From positions 1-64,000 of IMG/VR virus record IMGVR_UViG_3300035698_014118: 64,000 nucleotides of DNA; one strand, given 5' to 3'. Position numbers and translations under genes: made by a program. Positions 2,966 to 61,466 of this stretch are shown one piece after another (the stretch's first letter is position 1; each line of letters begins with the position of its first letter). The DNA comes from a virus. The notes beneath the pieces are model-generated. The model was not told where the DNA came from and searched no databases. It worked only from the letters and a program-made list of their open reading frames with translations.

Positions 2966-4089
2966 AAAATATAATAGTATGCAATTTGTCTCATGTAAAA
3001 AGATTTGCTGACTACGAAGAGTATATCAAAGCACAGATAGATAATAGTTTAGATTTGGGATGGGAACAAAGCGACATTATTCTAGTTACTAACTTTGATT
3101 ACTCGTACAGAGACGTTGAAGCTTTTGTAACTGAAATGAACTGTGATTTTTGTCTTACAGGCAGTAAAGCATTTGCTGCGGTGAAGTTGTTTAATGAGGG
3201 GATGATTACAGAGAGAGCATGGTTACACGATTTAGATGCTTGGCAACTTTGTAAATTCAATTTTCCTGATATCAATGATATAGGTATGGTTTCTTATATC
3301 AGAAGATGGAATGGTGGTAGTGTATTTTTAAAACCGTCGTCTAAAGATATATTTGAAGCCATTGTCGAAGGCATCAATAAAACTCATTCCAGTAAAGAAG
3401 AACCACTTATTAAAATAGTTTTTAAAAACGATGAATACAAAGATCGTGTAACTACTATAGATCATTCGTTTAATGTAGGTGCTACAGGATTTGAGAAAAG
3501 ATATATCAAAAGCAAAAAACCTATCAAGGTTGTCCATATGCATCCTACAAGAAAAGGTGATTGCGCCAGAAATATAGGTGGTAGAAATAGACTAGCAATT
3601 AGATTAGTAGATGAGAGATTAAAAAATATATTTGTTAAACATTTTGGAGAGAATGTAGCTCCATATGGTCAAGATGCAAAAGTAGAGATTGAATGTTCTC
3701 CTAAAATCAAACTCAAAATAGGAGTTTTGAAAAACGGATCGGAATTTCATACTAATCGCCAAAAATACAAACTTATGAATTGTCCTGATTCACTATTAGG
3801 AAAGAAGTTTTTAAGACTTCCTCACAAGAAACCCTGTCAGCTAACTATTAAAGCAAAAGAATCGGGCATTCTTATTTTAGGGATTTGCAAACAGCATGTA
3901 TTGATAGAGAAAGGCTTGAATGCTTCTGGATGGTATTATATACAACATGCCAAATTAGAAACCAATTATAGAGACGTTAGTAGCTTTTCTCTTTATACAA
4001 GATTAGTAAATAAAGGAAATGTTATAAAATTATCACATGATTATAAAGTAAATCCGATTATCATATCAAACAGGATAGAAGTTATATGA
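2962..4089 (+). CDS. Putative GT-A-like sugar transferase with C-terminal beta-rich domain
   Basis: DxD-like WLHDLDAWQ and WNGGSVF; position within glycosylation cluster. Confidence 0.45.
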   Translation: MKNIIVCNLSHVKRFADYEEYIKAQIDNSLDLGWEQSDIILVTNFDYSYRDVEAFVTEMNCDFCLTGSKAFAAVKLFNEGMITERAWLHDLDAWQLCKFNFPDINDIGMVSYIRRWNGGSVFLKPSSKDIFEAIVEGINKTHSSKEEPLIKIVFKNDEYKDRVTTIDHSFNVGATGFEKRYIKSKKPIKVVHMHPTRKGDCARNIGGRNRLAIRLVDERLKNIFVKHFGENVAPYGQDAKVEIECSPKIKLKIGVLKNGSEFHTNRQKYKLMNCPDSLLGKKFLRLPHKKPCQLTIKAKESGILILGICKQHVLIEKGLNASGWYYIQHAKLETNYRDVSSFSLYTRLVNKGNVIKLSHDYKVNPIIISNRIEVI

Positions 4090-4898
4090 ATGTAGGAAGA
4101 GATATTTGGAAAGGCGAATTTACTAAGACTGTAACTAATAATTACAAAATATCGATATGTACTACATGTATGAATAGATTGCACGATTTGAAGCAGACTT
4201 TACCTATCAATATGAAACTTAATAAACATTATCCAAATCTAGAATTTATAGTATTAGATTATAACTCATCTGATGGACTTGACAGATGGATGAAAAGTAA
4301 ACACGCTCAACCACATATAGAATCTGGTTTACTTGTTTATTATAAGACTACAGAACCGCATGTTTATAGTATGACTCATTCTAGAAATGTTGTTATGAAA
4401 CTTGCTACTGGTGATATAGTAAATAATGTCGATGCTGATTCATATGTTAAATCATTAGTAGATTCACCACAATATTGTTTTGCAGAATATATAAATATGT
4501 TGGCTAATGAAAGACCACAAAAATCTGTATTTGCTAAAGGTAAACAACTCTTACATGGAAGAATAGGATTTTTTAAAAAAGAGTTTGTAGATTTACTTGG
4601 TGGTTATGATGAAGTAATAACTGGTTATGGTTATGACGATTGGGATATTGTTATGAGAGCATCTGCTTTGGGATTTAAATGGATGGTTTATGGTAGTAGG
4701 TATTTATGGAGGATTAGGACTAGATGGGAAGAAAAGATGGAAAATATGTCAGAAGTAAATAAGATAGATAGACAAAAAATAAACAAAAGTATTTCTGATA
4801 AAAACATACAGTCTGGCAAATTAAAAGCTAATATAGGAAGACATTGGGGGAAAGCCACTGTAACCAAGAATTTCAGTAAAGATTTGATTTATATATAA
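4086..4898 (+). CDS. Glycosyltransferase family 2
   Basis: ISICTTCMNR, VLDYNSSDG, NVDAD, GGYDE..GYGYDDWD. Confidence 0.8.
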   Translation: MNVGRDIWKGEFTKTVTNNYKISICTTCMNRLHDLKQTLPINMKLNKHYPNLEFIVLDYNSSDGLDRWMKSKHAQPHIESGLLVYYKTTEPHVYSMTHSRNVVMKLATGDIVNNVDADSYVKSLVDSPQYCFAEYINMLANERPQKSVFAKGKQLLHGRIGFFKKEFVDLLGGYDEVITGYGYDDWDIVMRASALGFKWMVYGSRYLWRIRTRWEEKMENMSEVNKIDRQKINKSISDKNIQSGKLKANIGRHWGKATVTKNFSKDLIYI

Positions 4899-6295: not shown

Positions 6296-8362
6296 GTGGC
6301 AAAATCGCTTATGTCTAGAAAGAAGCCATCTGTGTCTAAGGCTAAAAGGCTAAGGAATCAAGAGTTACTTGCTCGCATTGAGGGCCGAAGAAATAAACTA
6401 CAAGAAGTAGCAAAAGAACTCAAGAATCATTTCGTTGGTCTTGATGCAATTATTGATAAGATTGTGAAAAATCTAGAAGTCTGGTATGTTATGCCAGAAC
6501 TTATCACTAGACCTGTTGTGATTAATCTTTGGGGAATGACTGGCGTAGGAAAAACCGACCTTGTTAGAAGACTGGTTAAACACCTTGATTTCTCAGACAA
6601 TTTTGTAGAAATTCAACTTACCAATAAAGGTTCTACAATAGATTCATATTCCTCTTCTATTCAGTCCGTTTTAGAATGCTCCAACGTAGAGCCTAATGAA
6701 CCGGGTATTCTTCTTCTTGATGAAATCCAGAGATTTCGTTCCATCAATGAAAATGGACAAGAGATACACGACTATCGTTTTCAAGATGTTTGGATGTTGC
6801 TAAGCGATGGTAGATTCAGTGGGGCATCTGACGGCAAAGAAACTTTGTTGAGAATGCTTTTTGAAAATAAGTATTGGAAAGATGTAAAAGATAACGGCGA
6901 CGATGAAGACGGATTTGATAGTGATGAAGGCGTACGCCCTGATGATGAAGACGAATACAATGACGAAGACGAAGATAAACCAGTAAAAGCTATAAAGAAA
7001 AAGAAGCCCAAAAACAAAAAAGAGAGGATGTATCGCCAAACATACTGGGAGGCTCGTAGACTAAAAACCGTTCTTAAACTGACGGAGCCAGTAGAAAAAA
7101 TCATGATGTGGAACGATGATAAAAAGACTCAAATGCTAATAGAGAAAATAGCAGATCAGTCTACTTATCATGGTGAAAACTATTCTAAACTTTTGGTCTT
7201 CATCTCTGGTAACCTTGATGAAGCATACGAGATGTCTGACTCCGCTGACAATGCAGATATAGATGCAGATGTATTTCATAAGTTCTCTTTGAAAATAAAT
7301 ATGATTTCCATTAAGAAGGCTCTTAGGGAGAGATTCAAGCCAGAACAAATTGCTCGTTTTGGTAATGTTCATATTATCTATCCTTCATTGAGCGAAAAAT
7401 CTTATAGGAATATCATCGACAGAAAAATCAAAGAGTCTGTTAGTAGGATACGGAAAAAATTCGGCGTTAGAATCAAAGTTGATCAAACCATTAAAGATTT
7501 TATATATAGAAACGGTGTCTTTCCCGCTCAAGGAGTAAGACCTCTGTTCTCTACTATATCATCTTATCTGGAAAATGCTTTACCATTCATCGTTCTTAGT
7601 GCTATAGAAAATGATATATATGATGTAATCATTCTATACAAAAATGATCATATTTGCGCAAAAATAGGAACCACTATACATAAGGTTAAATACGAAGAAG
7701 GCGAGCTTGACCAAATCAAAAACAAGCAAGACCCTGATAAAAAGGTCAAGATTTCCGTTCATGAAGCAGGTCACGCTCTGATTTACGCTCTTGTTTTCGG
7801 CACTGTTCCAGTTGAAGTAAAATCAAATGCTACTGTTGGAGAACATCATACTGGATATGTTGGTTCACATTCCATTTTGGAATCTGCTGAACAAATACGT
7901 AACAAAATATCTGTTAGTCTTGCCGGCCGAGCCGCTGAAATACTAGTTTTTGGAAAAGATCATACTGATTTTGGTTCGGAAACAGATTTGTGCTATGCAA
8001 CGGAACTCGCTGTTGGAATGGTTAGACATTTGGGAATGGCCGACACAATCGCTAGAAAACAAAGTGCTTCAATCAATTTGCCAGATACATCAAATTGCAG
8101 TCACGATGTCTCCCATACTGATGCGATTATTGAAAACATCTTACAATCACAAAATCGCAAAGTAGAAGTTATGATCAAAGAACATACTAATCTTTTGAAA
8201 GCTGTTGCAAATATATTGATTGAAAACGGCGTAATGGAACAAAAAGAATTCCAGACCCTTTGCAAAGCTCATGGAATTATCACAAAAATTGTAGATGCAG
8301 AAGATCAAATCGTTACCGATTATAGTAACAAGTATAAAGAATTTTTCAGAAAAGGAGACTAA
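6296..8362 (+). CDS. AAA+ ATPase fused to M41 (FtsH-type) zinc metallopeptidase, no transmembrane anchor
   Basis: Walker A GMTGVGKT; Walker B LLLDE; HEAGH; LAGRAAE; DL..AT..A..MV..LGM. Confidence 0.85.
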   Translation: MAKSLMSRKKPSVSKAKRLRNQELLARIEGRRNKLQEVAKELKNHFVGLDAIIDKIVKNLEVWYVMPELITRPVVINLWGMTGVGKTDLVRRLVKHLDFSDNFVEIQLTNKGSTIDSYSSSIQSVLECSNVEPNEPGILLLDEIQRFRSINENGQEIHDYRFQDVWMLLSDGRFSGASDGKETLLRMLFENKYWKDVKDNGDDEDGFDSDEGVRPDDEDEYNDEDEDKPVKAIKKKKPKNKKERMYRQTYWEARRLKTVLKLTEPVEKIMMWNDDKKTQMLIEKIADQSTYHGENYSKLLVFISGNLDEAYEMSDSADNADIDADVFHKFSLKINMISIKKALRERFKPEQIARFGNVHIIYPSLSEKSYRNIIDRKIKESVSRIRKKFGVRIKVDQTIKDFIYRNGVFPAQGVRPLFSTISSYLENALPFIVLSAIENDIYDVIILYKNDHICAKIGTTIHKVKYEEGELDQIKNKQDPDKKVKISVHEAGHALIYALVFGTVPVEVKSNATVGEHHTGYVGSHSILESAEQIRNKISVSLAGRAAEILVFGKDHTDFGSETDLCYATELAVGMVRHLGMADTIARKQSASINLPDTSNCSHDVSHTDAIIENILQSQNRKVEVMIKEHTNLLKAVANILIENGVMEQKEFQTLCKAHGIITKIVDAEDQIVTDYSNKYKEFFRKGD

Positions 8363-8363
8363 A

Positions 8364-8825
8364 ATGGGAATGACGCTAGCAAAAGCTTTGAAATGTAAGA
8401 ATCGTCTCACGCAGAAAATTGGCAAAGTCAGTGGTGACATTAGTTCGTTTAATAGTCATCCGGCTGAAGCTACTTCTCCTGTTGACGTGAAAGCTCTGTA
8501 CAAAACCAGAAAAGAACTTGTTACAAAGCTATCTGAACTCAAGATTAAAATCATCATAGCGAATAGTGGAATCTGGGAAAGTATTATTCGTATTGCAGAA
8601 GCAAAAGGAGAGATTGTTTTTTGGCAGCGAGTGTCTGTCTTAGATGGTAAAAGCTTCCTTTCTGGCGGATATAGAGACACTGAGCTTCTTGACTATGCAG
8701 CAGAATTCAAGAAGCCAGAAGTAGATGCAATGGTTTCTGAATTGGAAAAAGAAGTAGATGATTTGCAAGAAAGAATTGATGTTTACAATCATACAACTAC
8801 CATAGATTTTGTTATGCCTGACTAA
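8364..8825 (+). CDS. DIP1984-like coiled-coil protein (start moved to ATG 8364, after AGGAG)
   Basis: MTLAKALK.KNRL N-terminus; LQERID.YN.TT.I C-terminus; family recognised from memory. Confidence 0.6.
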   Translation: MGMTLAKALKCKNRLTQKIGKVSGDISSFNSHPAEATSPVDVKALYKTRKELVTKLSELKIKIIIANSGIWESIIRIAEAKGEIVFWQRVSVLDGKSFLSGGYRDTELLDYAAEFKKPEVDAMVSELEKEVDDLQERIDVYNHTTTIDFVMPD

Positions 8826-8845
8826 ATTACTGGTTGGACAAGCGG

Positions 8846-9034
8846 TGCGGGAAGTTGTTGCAAGAGACTTAGAAGAGAGAACACATATCGCCTAACTAGC
8901 GAAAATGACCAGAGTTATTGATCTTGATCTTGTATTAAAAACTCAAAGTTCAACGATTAAAAACTAAAAAGTCAAGACTTAAGACTTATCCCCTGATCTC
9001 TTTACTTTGTTTCTTCAGCACTTCCCGCATTTTT
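8846..9034 (+). ncRNA. Putative structured RNA with internal 7-nt repeats, directly 3' of the DIP1984-like gene
   Basis: tgcgggaagt (8846-8855) pairs perfectly with acttcccgca (9020-9029); the stem extends inward; tandem heptamers at 8937-8987; U-run follows. Confidence 0.6.
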
Positions 9035-9103
9035 ATATATTGAGTGAATAGTTTTTATGTATACTTTTTTAATGTCTTCCGATATTACTTTTAGGAGAGT
9101 AAA

Positions 9104-9526
9104 ATGACTGAACAAGAACAAAAAATAGTTGAAGTTCCCATGCGTAGAAAAGATGTGTTTCAGACAGATGATGGTCGAAGAATCGAAGTATTCACTAAAA
9201 TAGATTCAATACCATATGTAAACAAGTCTGATTCGGTTGAAGAAGAAGCACCTGAATTTCTAGAAGTTGAAGATATCTACATCGGAAAGGTTCAAGTATA
9301 TACTCCAATGGGTCCGCGAGAAGTATCCTTCCGTATTGAAGATGTATCTACTATTAAAGAAGCTTTCGATAAGTATTTTGACTTCGCAAATGTTGCAGTT
9401 GATAATTTGAAGAAGCAACTTGAAGAAGCAGAAGCAAAAGATAACAAGATTATAACTGCTCCTGCTGGCGTGCTGGATGCTTTCGACGTAAATCAAGAAG
9501 AAGGCAGAATTATACAACAGCCATAA
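9104..9526 (+). CDS. Conserved hypothetical acidic protein
   Basis: ORF with AGGAG RBS; YIG.VQVYTPMGP..VSF.IE motif resembles a bacterial hypothetical family. Confidence 0.55.
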   Translation: MTEQEQKIVEVPMRRKDVFQTDDGRRIEVFTKIDSIPYVNKSDSVEEEAPEFLEVEDIYIGKVQVYTPMGPREVSFRIEDVSTIKEAFDKYFDFANVAVDNLKKQLEEAEAKDNKIITAPAGVLDAFDVNQEEGRIIQQP

Positions 9527-9534
9527 GGTGAGTT

Positions 9535-9825
9535 ATGCCAGAAACTATATCTGAAACTTTAGATGTTCTTGATAAGCAGCTTAAGGCGTTTAAAGAAATT
9601 CGTAATCAACTTATTGAGTTGTTTGATGGACATGAAATGCTTTCTGAAATAGATAGAGATTTTAGAATAGTATTTCGTGCCATAGATTTGATATACGAAA
9701 AATCTTCAGAACACGATTTAAATGCTCCATCTATAATTTTACTTGATTCGATGTCTTTATATACTCAGGCAGTTTTGGTTCTAACTAGCAAAATTAAAGA
9801 CAATGGTTTAATTATAGATTTCTAG
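9535..9825 (+). CDS. Hypothetical protein
   Basis: ORF with AGGTGA RBS. Confidence 0.55.
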   Translation: MPETISETLDVLDKQLKAFKEIRNQLIELFDGHEMLSEIDRDFRIVFRAIDLIYEKSSEHDLNAPSIILLDSMSLYTQAVLVLTSKIKDNGLIIDF

Positions 9826-11098: not shown

Positions 11099-11811
11099 TG
11101 GATAGTAAACTAAGCAAAACACTTCTTAAAAGATTAAGAAATTTTAAAGACAAATCTAGCAAGATGCTAGATGAATCGAGCGCCATTCGTGCTGGAATAC
11201 AGAATGCAATGATGATTTCTGATTTACCAGACGAAGAACGAGATTCTTTAAAAGAAGTATTAGAATTCTTTGAAGACATAAAAGTTGAATTAACATCAAT
11301 AACTGAAGAATCTGAAAATACTGTTCGCATATTTAAGAGTGTAGATAAAGTAAAACTTTTGAGAATAGCTACAGGCGAAACTGTAAGAATCAGACCACTT
11401 AATTTACCTATTCTGTATTATTTTCACATGGACGTAAACAATTTTATATGTATGCAAGATGATGATGAGATTATCCACTATTTAACTAATAATGGAATAA
11501 AATTAAGATCAAGAGTAGCGTTTTACGCATGGAAATCTGATGATAAGGAGGTTGTCTTAGCTACATTGCCAAAAAGTATAGTCGGTGACATATTAAATGT
11601 ATGTAATGGCAGTGCTCCAAATCTTCCTTCTGGCGGTCACGTTCTTTCTATATCAAAAGTTGGCTATGGAATAACTACAAAATACGCTGTTACCGCTGAA
11701 CCTCTTTTAATGAGGGAACAAGAAATAAATATGCTGTTAGAAGATTTACCCTCTATGACAGAAGTTTTAAATCTTAAAGACCTTGATGAAGTAAAACAGT
11801 TATTACCATGA
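11098..11811 (+). CDS. Hypothetical protein; C-terminal half may be gp32-like ssDNA-binding
   Basis: N-terminal coiled coil; GET.RIRPL and LSISKVGYGITTKYAV resemble gp32-like SSB motifs. Confidence 0.35.
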   Translation: MDSKLSKTLLKRLRNFKDKSSKMLDESSAIRAGIQNAMMISDLPDEERDSLKEVLEFFEDIKVELTSITEESENTVRIFKSVDKVKLLRIATGETVRIRPLNLPILYYFHMDVNNFICMQDDDEIIHYLTNNGIKLRSRVAFYAWKSDDKEVVLATLPKSIVGDILNVCNGSAPNLPSGGHVLSISKVGYGITTKYAVTAEPLLMREQEINMLLEDLPSMTEVLNLKDLDEVKQLLP

Positions 11812-12329
11812 AAAGGCTTTTTACAGAAGAACAAGTACAAATCGCAATTAAGTCATTAGCTAGCGGAATTGACGAAAAATTCTGCAAAGACTATTCTGTT
11901 GATTATCTTTCAAGTAAAGAAGTAGTTTTTATCGGCATACTCAAAGGTGGTATAGATTTCATGTTCAAGTTGTTAAAGAATGTGAATATCAGATATACTT
12001 TTGGGTTTTTGTCTATATCGTCTTATGGGAGTGGTCATCGTCCGGGTCAGCCGAAGTTAGAATATGTTGGCATTCCTGATTTAAAGGATAAAGATGTTGT
12101 TATAGTTGATGATATTGTTGATACAGGTAATTCTATAGAATTAGCAAAAAAAATTACCATGTTGTATGAGCCAGCTAGTTTAACAACTGTCACTTTATTG
12201 TTGCGAGAGAATACTCCTAAAGACCCTGATATGTTTGGACTTATAGTGGGAAACGATAGATTCGTTATAGGTTCTGGTATGGGCAATGGAGATTTATATA
12301 GGTACATGAAGGGAATTTGGATCATGTAA
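11808..12329 (+). CDS. hpt: Hypoxanthine phosphoribosyltransferase
   Basis: GILKGG..F; SSYG; PRPP-binding VVIVDDIVDTGNS; FVIG.G. Confidence 0.85.
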   Translation: MKRLFTEEQVQIAIKSLASGIDEKFCKDYSVDYLSSKEVVFIGILKGGIDFMFKLLKNVNIRYTFGFLSISSYGSGHRPGQPKLEYVGIPDLKDKDVVIVDDIVDTGNSIELAKKITMLYEPASLTTVTLLLRENTPKDPDMFGLIVGNDRFVIGSGMGNGDLYRYMKGIWIM

Positions 12330-57310: not shown

Positions 57311-57381
57311 GGCGCAGTGACTGAGAGGAAAAGTGACGGTCTGCAAAACCGTAGACGTGGGTTCGAATCCCACCTGTGCCT
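57311..57381 (+). tRNA. tRNA-Cys(GCA)
   Basis: Acceptor ggcgcag/ctgtgcc; acggt-ctGCAaa-accgt; T-loop ttcgaat. Confidence 0.9.
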
Positions 57382-57398
57382 TTGATAATTAAATACGA

Positions 57399-57470
57399 GC
57401 GCCCGAAGCTCAAAAGGTGGAGCATCCGGCTTTTAACCGGAAGGACCGGGTTCGATTCCCAGCGGGCGTA
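57399..57470 (+). tRNA. tRNA-Lys(TTT)
   Basis: gcgcccg/cgggcgt; tccgg-ctTTTaa-ccgga; ttcgatt. Confidence 0.88.
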
Positions 57471-57642
57471 TGCTTCAAAAGGAAGTGTTTGAAGTCGTTG
57501 ATACCGTTTCATGGAAGATTTGAATTAGGCATCTGCGCCGCTGAACTGATATTGTTCAGATGATGTACTAGCTTTTTTATAACTGTATATGGGTTTATTA
57601 ATGTGCGATAACCGGGGAGGGTGTAACTACTCTCCCCGACAT

Positions 57643-57715
57643 ATTCCAGAAGCTCAAAAGGATGGGCGGCGGTTTACGGAACCGCAGGTTGGAGGTTCGA
57701 ATCCTCTCTGGAATA
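57643..57715 (+). tRNA. tRNA-Arg(ACG)
   Basis: attccag/ctggaat; gcggt-ttACGga-accgc; ttcgaat. Confidence 0.88.
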
Positions 57716-57725
57716 GTTTATATAT

Positions 57726-57801
57726 GGTGGGTGTAGCATAATTGGCTAATGCACCGTGTTGTGATCGCGGGGATTTGCGGGTTCGAATCCCGTCGCCCAC
57801 C
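57726..57801 (+). tRNA. tRNA-His(GTG)
   Basis: G-1, gtgggtg/cgcccac, C73; ccgtg-ttGTGat-cgcgg. Confidence 0.88.
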
Positions 57802-57893
57802 CGTAGGAAGGAGACCCGAGAACGACGGTTCAAGGCAGTACGGGAAAACTCAGCCTTCCCTTCTTCTTCGCGACGGTGGAGTGAAGGGAATTA

Positions 57894-57969
57894 CGGAGTG
57901 TAGCTCAGTTTGGCTTAGAGCGCGGCGTTTGGGGCGCTGAGGTCGCAGGTTCGAGTCCTGTCACTCCGA
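57894..57969 (+). tRNA. tRNA-Pro(TGG) copy 1
   Basis: cggagtg/cactccg; cggcg-ttTGGgg-cgctg. Confidence 0.92.
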
Positions 57970-57975
57970 GTTTAA

Positions 57976-58122
57976 CGGTTGATGGAGTAAAAGTTTTGCA
58001 TGATAGACATGAGACAGTCCGCGCGGATAACTCATGGAACACTAGTGAAATTCATGCAAGAAAATTCATCTCGCCAGGCATGGGGCTTGGAGATGGGGGT
58101 GAAAATCCCTCTCAGCCGACCA
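57976..58122 (+). tRNA. tRNA-Pro(TGG)-like with a large structured insertion in the D-loop
   Basis: cggttga/tcagccg-A-CCA; ccagg-caTGGgg-cttgg; ggggg-tgaaaat-ccctc; insert hairpin ttgcatga...tcatgcaa. Confidence 0.7.
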
Positions 58123-58156
58123 TTATTTTTAAAAGAAGTGATTAGAACTTCTATAA

Positions 58157-58230
58157 CAGTGCGTAGCTCAGCTTGGCAGAGCGCCGGTTTTGGGAATCGG
58201 AGGTCGGAGGTTCGAATCCTCTCGCACTGA
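58157..58230 (+). tRNA. tRNA-Pro(TGG) copy 3
   Basis: cagtgcg/cgcactg; ccggt-ttTGGga-atcgg. Confidence 0.92.
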
Positions 58231-58251
58231 GTAAGATTTTTCAAATTCTTG

Positions 58252-58279
58252 TTGAAAGATTCAATTAGCATGTTATAAT
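58252..58279 (+). promoter_or_regulatory. Sigma70-like promoter of the large ncRNA
   Basis: TTGAAA-N16-TATAAT with extended TG. Confidence 0.55.
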
Positions 58280-58339
58280 AGTTGAGTTGGAAGCAAAGCC
58301 CTTGATTAGAAGGGTTTCTTAAATCGCACAAAAGTGAAT

Positions 58340-59245
58340 ATAAGAGTATTCGTTATAGCTTCGGTTGTAACAAATACAAAGGGGCCGTATAGGGTCCATC
58401 AAGAGTAAGGTTGGCGACAACCCCAAAGAATTGTTTGACATACAATTCGCCTTTCAATTATGTTAGGTTCATCTATAAAAGCCTACTCTTCTTGGTTTCC
58501 TGCAACGGGAACTAAGGACGGAAGTTAGGACTGGTGGAAGAGGCAAAATCCTGGGCAACGCTAGGGAGATAAGTCCTGCTCTTAGCAGAGCTACACTGTC
58601 ATGCTAAAACTAATTACGTTTGAGAGAGAAAGGTAGTTACTGAGTTCAAGTACGTTGCTGTATAAGGGCGAAGTAGCAGTTCTAAAGATTTTCGGGTTTG
58701 GCTTATGGAGGTTAAAGCCCATAAGGTAAACACGATTATCTTGAAGAACGGAGGAACCCAATTGGCAGTTGGGCCTCATGAACGGTGAGTGATATTGGCT
58801 ACCTCAAAAGGGTAGTTAATCGCTGAGCCAGCGCGTCGTTCAGTCAACCACCCGTTTAGCTCATTAGTAGAGCGAAACCAATTTAAGGTTTAGGCAGTAG
58901 GTGCAATCCCTGCAACAGGTACCAAAGCAAAAAGGCTGGCTTGGCGCTCGATCAAAGCGGCTTAATTCTGTAGCCTTTCGGGGTAATACAGACGTTTGAG
59001 GCTCGCAAGGCTGATAATGTTGATTCAGGATGACTATGTTAGCGGTTAGCTGCTGCTAATATGGTTGGAAGAATCGAGTAGTCGAGTGTTACAGAGGTAA
59101 TGCCTCCTCTTTAAATTGGGCAGTCGTGAGTTGCTACATCTCGCAAGGGATGTGGATACGTTCTTAACAGTTCGGTAACTATTGCGGTTCGAACTGGTAC
59201 GGGAACTAAAGGCGGCTCTAACATGGGTATAGTCTCAGCCCACGT
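58340..59245 (+). ncRNA. Large structured ncRNA, GOLLD-like (boundaries approximate)
   Basis: About 900 nt with no credible ORF; GC-richer than flanks; many hairpins with GCAA/UUCG-type loops; inside a phage tRNA array; contains an embedded tRNA-like unit. Confidence 0.6.
58850..58924 (+). tRNA. Degenerate tRNA-like element (TTT in loop) embedded in the large ncRNA
   Basis: acccgtt/aacaggt-A-CCA (one mismatch); gctc/gagc D-stem; aaacc-aatttaa-ggttt; gtagg-tgcaatc-cctgc. Confidence 0.6.
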
Positions 59246-59268
59246 TAACTTTTTCTCTGTTGCGATTC

Positions 59269-59341
59269 CAGCCTAAAGTGTTACTTGGCCGCATACCGCG
59301 TTTGGGGCGCGGTGGTTAGGGTTCAAATCCCTATAGGCTGA
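59269..59341 (+). tRNA. tRNA-Pro(TGG) copy 4
   Basis: cagccta/taggctg; ccgcg-ttTGGgg-cgcgg; taggg-ttcaaat-cccta. Confidence 0.85.
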
Positions 59342-59403
59342 TTCATTTCTTCTTCTTCTGGTGTATCCTAATATTTGTAGAATGTTTTCGTTAGGAGAAC
59401 TAG

Positions 59404-59790
59404 ATGAACATCTATGAAAAGCTACAAGAGTTTGACCAACGCATAAAAGAATGCGATGAGACTATCGATAACATGAAGTCTGAACGTAGTCTACTGCTCA
59501 AAGAGAGATCAACATTTTTAAAAGATTATAGACTAAAAGTAGGTTCTAACTCTATATCTTTTAAACCTTCTGGGGAATTTGTAATAAACACTCCTTTTAA
59601 TGGCAGTTCATCGGCATATAGCGGTCATATGAATGCGGTTATAAGACCAGATCAGATCAAAGAATTTTGGAAGACAATGCTTAGATTCTTCGATGATGAT
59701 CCGTCTATAGGAAAGACTAAAATCATTAAGAAAAAGAAGAAGAAATCTGGAAAAGATCAATATCAGTTTATGGATTTGGAAGACGAATAA
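59404..59790 (+). CDS. Hypothetical protein
   Basis: ORF with AGGAG RBS; N-terminal coiled coil. Confidence 0.6.
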   Translation: MNIYEKLQEFDQRIKECDETIDNMKSERSLLLKERSTFLKDYRLKVGSNSISFKPSGEFVINTPFNGSSSAYSGHMNAVIRPDQIKEFWKTMLRFFDDDPSIGKTKIIKKKKKKSGKDQYQFMDLEDE

Positions 59791-59825
59791 GCATGTTCGC
59801 TGTTCGCGAACAACGAACAGCATTT

Positions 59826-59895
59826 ACGTCCGACTGCCTGGGTGTAGCTCAAGATTCCAAATCTTGAAGATGGGGTTCGAATCCTCACGGGCGTG
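59826..59895 (+). tRNA. tRNA-Trp(CCA) with weak or short D-arm
   Basis: acgtccg/cgggcgt; caaga-ttCCAaa-tcttg; tgggg-ttcgaat-cctca. Confidence 0.75.
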
Positions 59896-59932
59896 TTAAA
59901 GGTTTTGTAGTATATATTCCGAATATATAAGT

Positions 59933-60829
59933 ATGAAAGCATTCACATTAGTTGAACTACTTGTAGTAATAGCGATTATCGCTATGTTAGTATCTATGCT
60001 TATCCCAGAATTATCAGCAGCCAAATCTATTGCAAGGTCTACTATATGCAAATCTCATTTGAACCAAATAAGTAATGGATTTAAAGCTCCAAGAGGAAAT
60101 GGAACTTCTAAATCGTTTCCAAATAAAAACTCTTGGCCTTCTATTCCTATGGATGTCTTATCAATCCCTGATATCTATGTATGTCCAGAAGATACAGATG
60201 AAGGACAAGGGACTCTTGTAGCAAACTATTCTCTTCATTATGGACCAGATTGTAACGAATTAGCAGGTTTGGATTTACTTATTGTCCCTGAATCAGATGG
60301 ATTTGGTCATGGAGGCTCTCCTATATGTAAAGTTAGAGATATGGGAGATTGGACGCTTTACATATTTGATGATGGCATGTGTAGAGATTTGGATGATTGG
60401 GCTTTTCGCGTTACAAAAGGTTATCCGCGAACTGCTACTAGAATATTGAATCCAGAAAATACTGATAGTACTCCTAGCGGTGGAAGAAAAGTTTCTATTT
60501 ATTGCAATGGTAAGCCATTACCAGGATGGGAAGATATGAGAGAAACAAGTCTTGTAGGTCAAAGTTTTGTTATGACCGAAGAAGGTACATTGGATTACGG
60601 ATATAACGCTCTTATAAGCGGTTATGAAGTTTCTCCAAAAACAATAGTTGCTCTTGATTATAATTTACGTCTTGCAAACGATGGAGAAGATATGACTTCT
60701 GAATTGCAAAATGGAGCAAGACATCGTGGTAAGCTTAATGTATTATATACAGATGGTTCTGTAACACATTCTCGTCCTAGTCAATTGGACCCTGCTATCA
60801 GCAACAATTCAATTCTTTGGACTCCGTAG
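59933..60829 (+). CDS. Prepilin-type N-terminal methylation protein with H-X9-DG C-terminus (DUF1559-like)
   Basis: [27 protein letters not shown]...C.S.L.QI; [14 protein letters not shown]. Confidence 0.88.
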
Positions 60830-60836
60830 TATTAAT

Positions 60837-60924
60837 GGATTCTGTTCTCTAAACCGGTCTGTAAAACCGGCGAAGTAAAAGAATTAGAGCGGTTCTTCGA
60901 GTGGTTCAACTCCTCCAGAATCCA
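60837..60924 (+). tRNA. D-armless tRNA-Tyr(GTA)-like RNA with long variable arm
   Basis: 8-bp stem ggattctg/cagaatcc-A; ccggt-ctGTAaa-accgg; ttcaact T-loop; no D hairpin. Confidence 0.65.
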
Positions 60925-60985
60925 TTTAAATTTTAGAAGGATGATACTGTTTAATAGGGTAATACTCTACTGTAAGGAGAGTATT

Positions 60986-61375
60986 ATGAATACAAAAGAA
61001 AAAGGTGATAAAGCAGTAGGGGTTGCAATAGCTTACTATAGTATGTCAAACATCGAAGTGCTACTACCGATAGGTGATAAAAAACCGTATGATTTTGTTA
61101 TTGATCGTAAGGGGAAGTTATTGAAGGTTCAATGTAAATTTGCTGGTCAAAAAACTCCCTATGGGATGTACAAGGCTAATCTTAGAGTAAAGGGCGGCAA
61201 TCAGAGTTTTCATACTACCAAATTTTATAAGCCTGGTGATTTTGATTTGTTATTTTGCCTGACAGGGGATGGAAGAATATTCGAAGTACCATCAAAGAAG
61301 ACTAACAAATTAAAGAATGCGATTACTCTTGGCAAAAAATATAAATTGCATCAAAAAAAATTGTTGTTAACATAA
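60986..61375 (+). CDS. PD-(D/E)XK endonuclease of the group I intron-associated type, free-standing
   Basis: MNTKEKGD.A; V..PIGD..PYDFVID..G.L.KVQCK; DFDLLF. Confidence 0.8.
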   Translation: MNTKEKGDKAVGVAIAYYSMSNIEVLLPIGDKKPYDFVIDRKGKLLKVQCKFAGQKTPYGMYKANLRVKGGNQSFHTTKFYKPGDFDLLFCLTGDGRIFEVPSKKTNKLKNAITLGKKYKLHQKKLLLT

Positions 61376-61377
61376 AT

Positions 61378-61464
61378 GGGTAAGCGCCGCAGTTGGAGAG
61401 GCGGGCAAGACTATAAATCTTGTGGCTTAAGCCTGAGTAGGTTCGAATCCTGACGGCCCCGCCA
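61378..61464 (+). tRNA. Chimeric or pseudo tRNA: Tyr-type body with ATA anticodon and mismatched acceptor
   Basis: caaga-ctATAaa-tcttg; long variable arm; gggtaag does not pair with cggcccc-G-CCA. Confidence 0.55.
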
Positions 61465-61466
61465 TT

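Follow-up and report, generated by a model that had tools for sequence, protein, structure and literature searches.

A conserved structured RNA directly downstream of a DIP1984-like phage gene and a possible HutP-like protein-RNA pair

The stretch of DNA considered here (henceforth the window) comprises the first 64 kb (64,000 nucleotides) of a 78-kb viral contig in IMG/VR (record IMGVR_UViG_3300035698_014118). CheckV estimates that the contig represents ~17% of its genome, so that it is only part of the genome of a very large phage; the DNA sequencing runs that contain the window sequence are salt-lake metagenomes. At positions 8364-9034, in a neighborhood where all genes are on the + strand, the window carries a gene for a small helical protein and, shortly after its stop codon, a structured RNA element whose relatives occur at the same place beside homologous genes in other phages and in bacterial genomes. 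An initial annotation of this region described a DIP1984-like coiled-coil gene followed by a long RNA stem that encloses tandem heptamers, and suggested either a protein-RNA pair with one repeat bound per subunit or an RNA-antitoxin-like module. The features at the locus are:

8364..8825, + strand: gene encoding a helical protein of 153 aa, remotely related to DIP1984/DUF6847 (open reading frame (ORF), profile match, AlphaFold2 (AF2) model)
8846..9029, + strand: the whole structured RNA element, assigned to the 3' untranslated region (UTR) of the gene (covariance model R3, 76.6 bits, E 1.8e-11, full-length; fold z = -4.3)
8846..8880, + strand: 5' arm of the closing helix P1 (perfect 10-bp repeat, minimum free energy (MFE) folds, family covariation)
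8888..8902, + strand: small hairpin P2, variable in sequence and length among relatives (MFE fold)
8915..8932, + strand: GAU-repeat block, UUAUUGAUCUUGAUCUUG (Tandem Repeats Finder (TRF), family alignment; consensus gau.auuGAU...GAUa.yG)
8934..8988, + strand: A-rich loop in which YYAA/YAAR units recur every 7-8 nt (TRF, family alignment)
8997..9029, + strand: 3' arm of the closing helix P1 (MFE folds, 10-bp repeat, family covariation)
9030..9034, + strand: U-run (T5) directly after P1 (sequence)

The arms at 8846-8855 and 9020-9029 are 10 nt long and 100% complementary, and in the MFE fold the helix extends with bulges, ~8845-8880 pairing with 8997-9030, which bears out the long stem originally noticed after the stop codon. 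The stop codon itself ends at 8825, and P1 begins 20-21 nt further on. The + strand folds with an energy of -64.2 kcal/mol (z = -4.3), a stability attained by none of 200 shuffled sequences. P1 encloses about 115-165 nt in the window, the loop inside the full helix measuring ~115 nt. Within this interior TRF recovers TTGATC x2.5 at 8918-8932, confirming the ttgatc repeats reported ahead of the A-rich units, and AAGACTT x2.1 at 8974-8988, while the A-rich run at 8934-8975 is scored as a 22-nt unit x1.9; the earlier count of about seven units of 7-8 nt is a fair description of such an imperfect array. The conserved two-unit tail of the A-rich loop reads UCAAGACUUAAGACUU in the window and UyAAaa.UyAAAAcUC in the family. 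Model R3 has a single match in the entire 78-kb record, at the gene.

A scan of IMG/VR recovered 80 loci with homologues at 26-41% identity, 57 of which were left after removal of duplicate flanks; with the window these constitute 58 non-redundant viral sources, to which 26 loci from genomes and metagenome-assembled genomes (MAGs) were added. In most loci 200-450 nt separate the gene from the next sense-strand ORF. A common plan can be read in these flanks: a closing helix that starts from the stop codon, a variable hairpin, three GAU triplets, A-rich units (of the CAAAAYU/UCAAGAU type, ending in UUAAAACUUAAAACUC) and the 3' arm of the helix. A covariance model, R1, was seeded on one subgroup (alignment A3) and iterated twice to yield R2 and R3. 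The R3 element is present in 52 of the 58 viral sources and in seven of the 26 genome/MAG loci, in every case on the sense strand and just after the homologous gene, and only two off-target matches, both weak, were obtained in 535 kb searched on both strands. Likewise, five phage genomes of 160-304 kb each have exactly one R3 match, at the gene. The six viral sources missed by the model are GC-rich or divergent, and the same design is visible in them by eye; one of these (L003) reads CUCAAAA, UGUAAGC, CUCAAGC, UACAAAA in consecutive units. Thus, homologues without stem and repeats, which the initial annotation had named as the finding that would speak against it, were not encountered among the viral sources, and the gene and RNA are supported as a conserved pair both by the model and by strict co-location. 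Other neighboring genes are not conserved, the next best cluster being found in 18 of 54 loci. The RNA is real, conserved, encoded on the sense strand and exclusive to the 3' flank of this gene.

The GC-rich relatives in MAGs of Planctomycetota and Verrucomicrobiota retain the three GAU triplets and the CAA-type heptamers in quite different surroundings, as exemplified by GAUGCCGAUGCCGAUCG followed by UCAAAAC...UCAAGCU.CUCAAAC. Arcicella aurantiaca DSM 22214 also has the pair (L098), though R3 matches its RNA only partially, at E 0.2. In a verrucomicrobial genome (L112) a canonical DUF6847 gene is followed on its 3' side by a stem-closed RNA with 7-nt CUCAGAC units, whose triplet is CAG where that of the window is CAA; therefore, the pairing of gene and RNA seems to be older than the viral branch. 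The 595-kb phage LR756511 (L001) also follows the plan of the element. A 28-codon lysine/proline-rich ORF (L001 3493-3579; MAKGKTPKKEPKK...) is inserted there between gene and RNA, so that the distance from stop codon to RNA is 132 nt rather than ~4 nt.

The protein encoded by the window gene matches the NCBIfam model for DIP1984 (NF038048) with E 6e-5 and 23.2 bits over residues 5-68 only, short of the curated cut-off of 70, and has no match in Pfam, PF20935 (DUF6847) included. Among family representatives at E < 1e-3, 45 of 52 match NF038048 and 25 of 52 match PF20935. A profile built from six relatives retrieved a branch of 1908 clusters at 50% identity, all of ~145-165 aa. The AF2 model of the window protein, computed with the family alignment as input, has a predicted local distance difference test score (pLDDT) of 96.5 and consists of a helix (5-29), a second, long helix (42-89), a β-hairpin (95-111) and a C-terminal helix (117-144). 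Its best fold match in the PDB is 3KDQ (Foldseek; template modeling (TM) score 0.63-0.66, probability 1.00), a Corynebacterium diphtheriae protein with no assigned function; in VIA, 3KDQ_A aligns with 142 of 152 residues at Z 12.8 and a root-mean-square deviation of 3.2 Å, the runner-up having Z 8.5. 3KDQ is thus the sole standout structural match, and the two share the same fold over their whole length. These comparisons indicate that the window protein belongs to a divergent, mostly viral branch of DIP1984 relatives: it resembles the DIP1984/DUF6847 family in its length of ~150 aa, its fold and its weak but consistent profile matches, and differs from it in the 23 bits obtained against a cut-off of 70 and in the lack of a Pfam match. 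Judged from profile and fold, the label 'DIP1984-like' therefore holds as remote homology (3KDQ, Z 12.8) but not as curated membership (23 bits vs 70).

Other searches with the window protein were largely silent: no relative was found by sequence in the PDB, nothing significant in PHROGs and no match in PADLOC, and among INPHARED phages there was no DNA match and one protein match, in LR756511. Its neighbors in BFVD and the ESM Atlas are uncharacterized phage proteins and a 'putative septicolysin'. Literature searches on DIP1984, DUF6847, 3KDQ and septicolysin, including in combination with RtcB, yielded annotation labels only and no function. At the level of segments, the family has a basic first helix H1 (median charge +5), which bears the conserved N-terminal motif AKALKxKN, and an acidic last helix H3 (median -7).

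The closing helix of the RNA is corroborated by compensatory variation. In alignment A7, which derives from R3 and has 61 rows, 85.1% of the cells in the three P1 segments are standard pairs, as against 38-49% in slid controls with the 3' partners moved by 1-3 columns, and all 23 P1 pairs vary on both sides, with a covariation score of 0.563 versus 0.07-0.12 in the slid controls; as the covariation alignments are fitted to the structure of the model, the pairing in them is somewhat inflated. The 41-row alignment A6 gives the same picture for P1 and additionally shows the small hairpin P2 to be 94% paired, and in the subgroup alignment A3 the hairpin equivalent to P2 keeps its pairing through two-sided changes. 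In a sequence-only MAFFT alignment of one subgroup, 8 pairs are kept through two-sided changes. G-U/U-G pairs number 103 and A-C/C-A combinations 40, which places the helix on the sense strand.

This asymmetry bears on the idea that the region acts at the level of DNA, with the protein binding it as origin iterons, a centromere or a packaging site. Direct repeats combined with an inverted repeat in an intergenic region are what such a site might display; but the excess of G-U over A-C (103 to 40) puts the helix on one strand only, the + strand fold has z -4.3 vs -1.4 for the - strand, the element lies within a transcription unit ahead of the terminator, and the 7-nt phase of the loop is mismatched to the pitch of duplex DNA. 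Given that the strand asymmetry contradicts it, we regard a DNA-level role as exceedingly improbable.

The interior enclosed by P1 is the part best conserved in sequence (gau.auuGAU...GAUa.yG ... aAayUcAarauUcAa .... UCAAaa ... UyAAaa.UyAAAAcUC), and this loop sequence is kept across proteins that are ~30% identical and across GC contents of 22-67%. In most relatives the interior is no more stable than shuffled sequences, and a scan of all column pairs of the alignment detected no stacked covarying internal helix. The loop contains three GAU triplets followed by five to eight YYAA/CAA units ~7 nt apart. Over 59 related RNAs, 36% of the spacings between YYAA motifs are of 7 nt and 13% of 8 nt (shuffles ~4% each), and 46% of those between GAU triplets are of 6-7 nt (shuffles ~4%). 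For one subgroup RNAalifold predicted an internal helix that pairs the GAU block with the UCAA units; it was not adopted, as the columns concerned barely vary and show no stacked covariation family-wide, and the shuffle-like stability of the interior and the GC-rich relatives, which keep GAU and CAA without complementarity, further speak against it. That the heptamers resemble anticodon loops or T loops was considered and set aside as numerology.

In the family the gap between stop codon and P1 has a median of 4 nt and is no wider than 12 nt in 36 of 48 cases, leaving no room for a promoter; between the window gene and its RNA no promoter-like site stands out above chance. A further, separate hairpin with a U-run comes no more than 70 nt behind the element in 29 of 47 relatives; in the window and five relatives a U-run directly follows P1. 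Because of the minimal gap between stop codon and P1, the lack of a promoter-like site and the terminators after the element, the RNA can be assigned from its sequence context to the 3' UTR of the gene, the whole forming a single unit of gene, structured 3' UTR and terminator. A scan for intrinsic terminators made no + strand call at the window element, whose loop exceeds the limit of the scan. P1 is not the short GC-rich hairpin with a small loop that is typical of an intrinsic terminator, though a U-run follows it, and the early remark that the loop is far too large for a plain terminator agrees with the separate terminators of the 29 relatives. In this particular phage the U-run at 9030-9034 is the likely end of the transcript.

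This arrangement also suits an element that acts purely in cis, protecting the 3' end of the mRNA or serving as a large or regulated terminator or as an autoregulatory operator, with no functional particle being formed; one variant of this would regulate, in the manner of HutP, transcriptional read-through to genes lying downstream. The element does lie between stop codon and terminator, the U-run does follow P1 directly in the window and five relatives, and the target RNA of HutP is likewise located directly after the hutP gene. However, the separate canonical terminator of 29 of the 47 relatives means that P1 is not the terminator in those, a stabilizing hairpin requires neither a conserved loop of ~100 nt nor triplets phased at 7 nt across 22-67% GC, and the downstream genes, on which a control of read-through would act, are not conserved. 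Moreover, since it is the loop, not the stem, that carries the repeats, their binding would not open a terminator in the way HutP does. We consider a purely cis-acting 3' UTR unlikely, though it deserves serious attention.

Two known systems offer precedents for the loop. TRAP acts on the trp leader, where triplets are repeated at fixed spacing in single-stranded RNA. In the HutP hexamer of Bacillus subtilis each face reads three XAG motifs with 4-nt spacers, i.e. with a period of 7, and the target RNA has its start immediately past the stop codon of hutP (PMC2425495). The element family displays the feature common to such targets, namely short triplets at fixed spacing in single-stranded RNA: immediately downstream of the gene, GAU occurs three times with a spacing of 6-7 nt, and YYAA/CAA recurs every 7 nt. 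There are also clear differences from HutP and TRAP. The window protein shows no homology to either, having no Pfam or NCBIfam match to them and no such structure among its fold matches; its fold is a helical bundle with a hairpin of the 3KDQ type, and the triplets differ. Further, the repeats of the element belong to the loop of a structure that is closed and stands alone, and not to a terminator stem, and neither ligand sensing nor a downstream operon is evident. By analogy, then, the gene-RNA pair may work like HutP while standing outside the HutP family.

A further parallel is provided by Ro60 (Rsr) and Y RNA/YrlA, in which, as in bacterial rsr-yrlA-rtcBA operons, an RNA closed by a stem of its 5' and 3' ends is encoded beside its protein partner. 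The pair described here likewise has a stem-closed RNA beside its gene, and some pairs adjoin RtcB or tRNA genes. It differs from the Ro60-Y RNA system in lacking a TROVE-domain protein and a tRNA-like domain and in that the conserved part is the loop, not the stem; there is no Y RNA/YrlA match from Rfam in window 8000-9800 or in 22 related loci. Among 14 named control genomes DUF6847 was matched only in Deinococcus radiodurans. This bacterium has a Ro60-Y RNA system.

The genes around the pair supply a recurring hint, albeit no rule, of a connection with RNA repair. HAD_SAK_2 (PF18143, 'HAD domain in Swiss Army Knife RNA repair proteins', E 2e-20) is encoded directly downstream in 18 loci, and an RNA ligase (PF09414) lies upstream of the pair in two lineages. 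RtcB adjoins the pair in four of the 26 genome/MAG loci. tRNA genes are found within 3 kb of it in nine of the 57 viral loci, three of these being inside tRNA arrays. A role in RNA repair or tRNA biology is suggested by this presence of RNA ligase, HAD phosphatase, RtcB or tRNA arrays nearby in several lineages.

Individual loci illustrate these contexts. In a flavophage-like group (L046) an RNA ligase with a PHA02142 OB domain (PF09414, PF21189) is encoded at 150-1283 and the HAD phosphatase (PF18143) at 3758-4441; in the second lineage (L067) the RNA ligase gene, at 1736-2731, is directly upstream. Locus L102 (G005:C22 2782-4035, 18440-19932) is on a 78-kb contig binned as a Bifidobacterium MAG; tRNA genes surround the pair there, and RtcB is matched piecewise immediately after it, pointing to a phage contig whose RtcB is split or contains an intein.

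The same neighborhoods could be invoked for an RNA that acts in trans and merely hitch-hikes on the transcript, either by titrating, as a sponge or decoy, some host or phage factor (RNase, RNA chaperone and anticodon nuclease being examples) or as a base-pairing small RNA, the protein having a separate role or being its chaperone. An A-rich, single-stranded, multi-copy loop is indeed seen in sponge RNAs, several loci are situated in tRNA arrays or beside RNA-repair genes, and the sequence motifs are kept while the stems drift. But the RNA accompanies a single gene family strictly one-to-one, be it in phages, bacteria or MAGs, which would hardly be expected unless RNA and protein were directly linked in function, and no candidate target complementarity was identified. 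An independent trans-acting RNA thus appears rather improbable.

As to the RNA-antitoxin reading of the initial annotation, a toxin-antitoxin (type III-like) or abortive-infection module, with the protein being neutralized by the RNA, would account for a small gene paired with a repeat-bearing RNA. It found no support: the all-helical DIP1984 fold is not that of a ToxN/AbiQ-like endoRNase, PADLOC gives no match, the RNA is downstream of the gene, the TRF units are of only 6, 7 and 22 nt with no tandem units of 30-40 nt, and the module occurs mostly in large phages of lytic type. With fold and gene order contradicting it, such a module has very little probability.

We tentatively favor the interpretation that gene and RNA specify a dedicated ribonucleoprotein, in which an oligomer of the protein reads the spaced triplets with HutP-like geometry and which may act in RNA repair or tRNA biology. 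What recommends a dedicated protein-RNA complex is the one-to-one linkage, the conserved single-stranded loop with its phased triplets and the basic conserved helix of the protein. According to this proposal, gene and RNA would encode the complex as one transcription unit, with P1 closing the RNA and presenting a largely unstructured loop of ~100 nt. The DIP1984-like protein would oligomerize, probably through the β-hairpin and terminal strands, and its basic conserved N-terminal helix (AKALKxKN) would read the spaced triplets, one motif per subunit. As only 4 nt (median) separate P1 from the stop codon, a terminating ribosome would melt the base of P1, which could help the newly made protein to load in cis. 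The complex might finally act in RNA repair or in tRNA-related stress, this being the weakest step of the scheme. For binding of one repeat per subunit, as first suggested by comparison with TRAP, the case is circumstantial and comprises the co-location, the spaced triplets, the basic N-terminal helix and the parallel with HutP.

Several observations weigh against this interpretation. Co-location is equally expected of a purely cis-acting 3' UTR element. The protein as a whole is near neutral (median pI, the isoelectric point, 6.4) and has no recognized RNA-binding domain. The 18 loci with HAD_SAK_2 come from one related phage group, the largest, and therefore represent few independent events; RtcB, RNA ligase and HAD_SAK_2 are all missing from the 78-kb record of the window (~17% of the genome). 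There are no RNA-seq runs among the listed runs that contain the window sequence, and the inflation of pairing in the model-fitted alignments mentioned above should also be counted here.

At its most general, the proposal would be that DIP1984/DUF6847 proteins and their RNAs form a widespread, unrecognized ribonucleoprotein of phages, bacteria and plasmids, in which an oligomer sits on triplets phased at 7 nt and works with RNA ligases (RtcB, Rnl-type) and phosphatases to repair or protect tRNAs and other RNAs in the conflict between phage and host; this extension is doubtful at present.

Both the RNA and its association with the gene are uncatalogued. An Rfam search had been recommended in the initial annotation; when run with Rfam 15 it assigned the window element to no family, returning nothing at E <= 10 beyond chance-level noise, and in the window gathering scores were reached only by tRNA and GOLLD. 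RAGATH-27 (RF03100) has no match at E <= 10 in window 8000-9800, nor at E <= 1 in the 22 related loci, nor any in phage T5; a DIP1984-like protein was not found by profile in phage T5 in a search that had no positive control. The literature searched yielded no description of the RNA or of its association with the gene.

The DIP1984 family has had a crystal structure since 2009 and no assigned function, and clinical plasmid papers still label its members 'septicolysin'. If an RNA is indeed an obligatory partner, it would offer the first testable biochemical handle on the large DIP1984-like family with its 1908 clusters, and would add a new RNA family to the RNA biology of phages and bacteria. 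Were the RNA-repair/tRNA context to hold, the conflict of phage and host over RNA damage would gain this pair as a new element. Gene and RNA together occupy a compact ~650 bp.

The wider setting of the pair varies. In locus L012 (1381-2427 and 3705-4820, both - strand) it lies between a phage-type integrase and a regulator combining a helix-turn-helix with an M78 (IrrE-like) domain, a temperate or integrative setting unlike the lytic large-phage setting seen elsewhere. In the window, a GOLLD RNA (RF02032; 183.7 bits vs a gathering score of 150) is encoded at 58780-59241 on the + strand, with a tRNA-Lys predicted inside it at 58850-58924, and is surrounded by an array of ten tRNAs at 57311-61547; a GOLLD RNA within a tRNA array marks the contig as that of a large phage with big structured RNAs. 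Immediately upstream of the DIP1984-like gene, a 688-aa protein is encoded at 6296-8362 (+ strand), its stop codon lying 1 nt before the start at 8364. This protein is a fusion of an AAA+ ATPase, a ClpB D2-small domain and an FtsH-type M41 peptidase, contains an acidic, lysine-rich insert, and has weak PADLOC matches to DolB and PDC-M37B via its ATPase part. Further downstream, the 173-aa ORF at 11808-12329 (+ strand) has, in its translation alone, the phosphoribosyltransferase signature VVIVDDIVDTGNS and appears to encode a purine or pyrimidine phosphoribosyltransferase.

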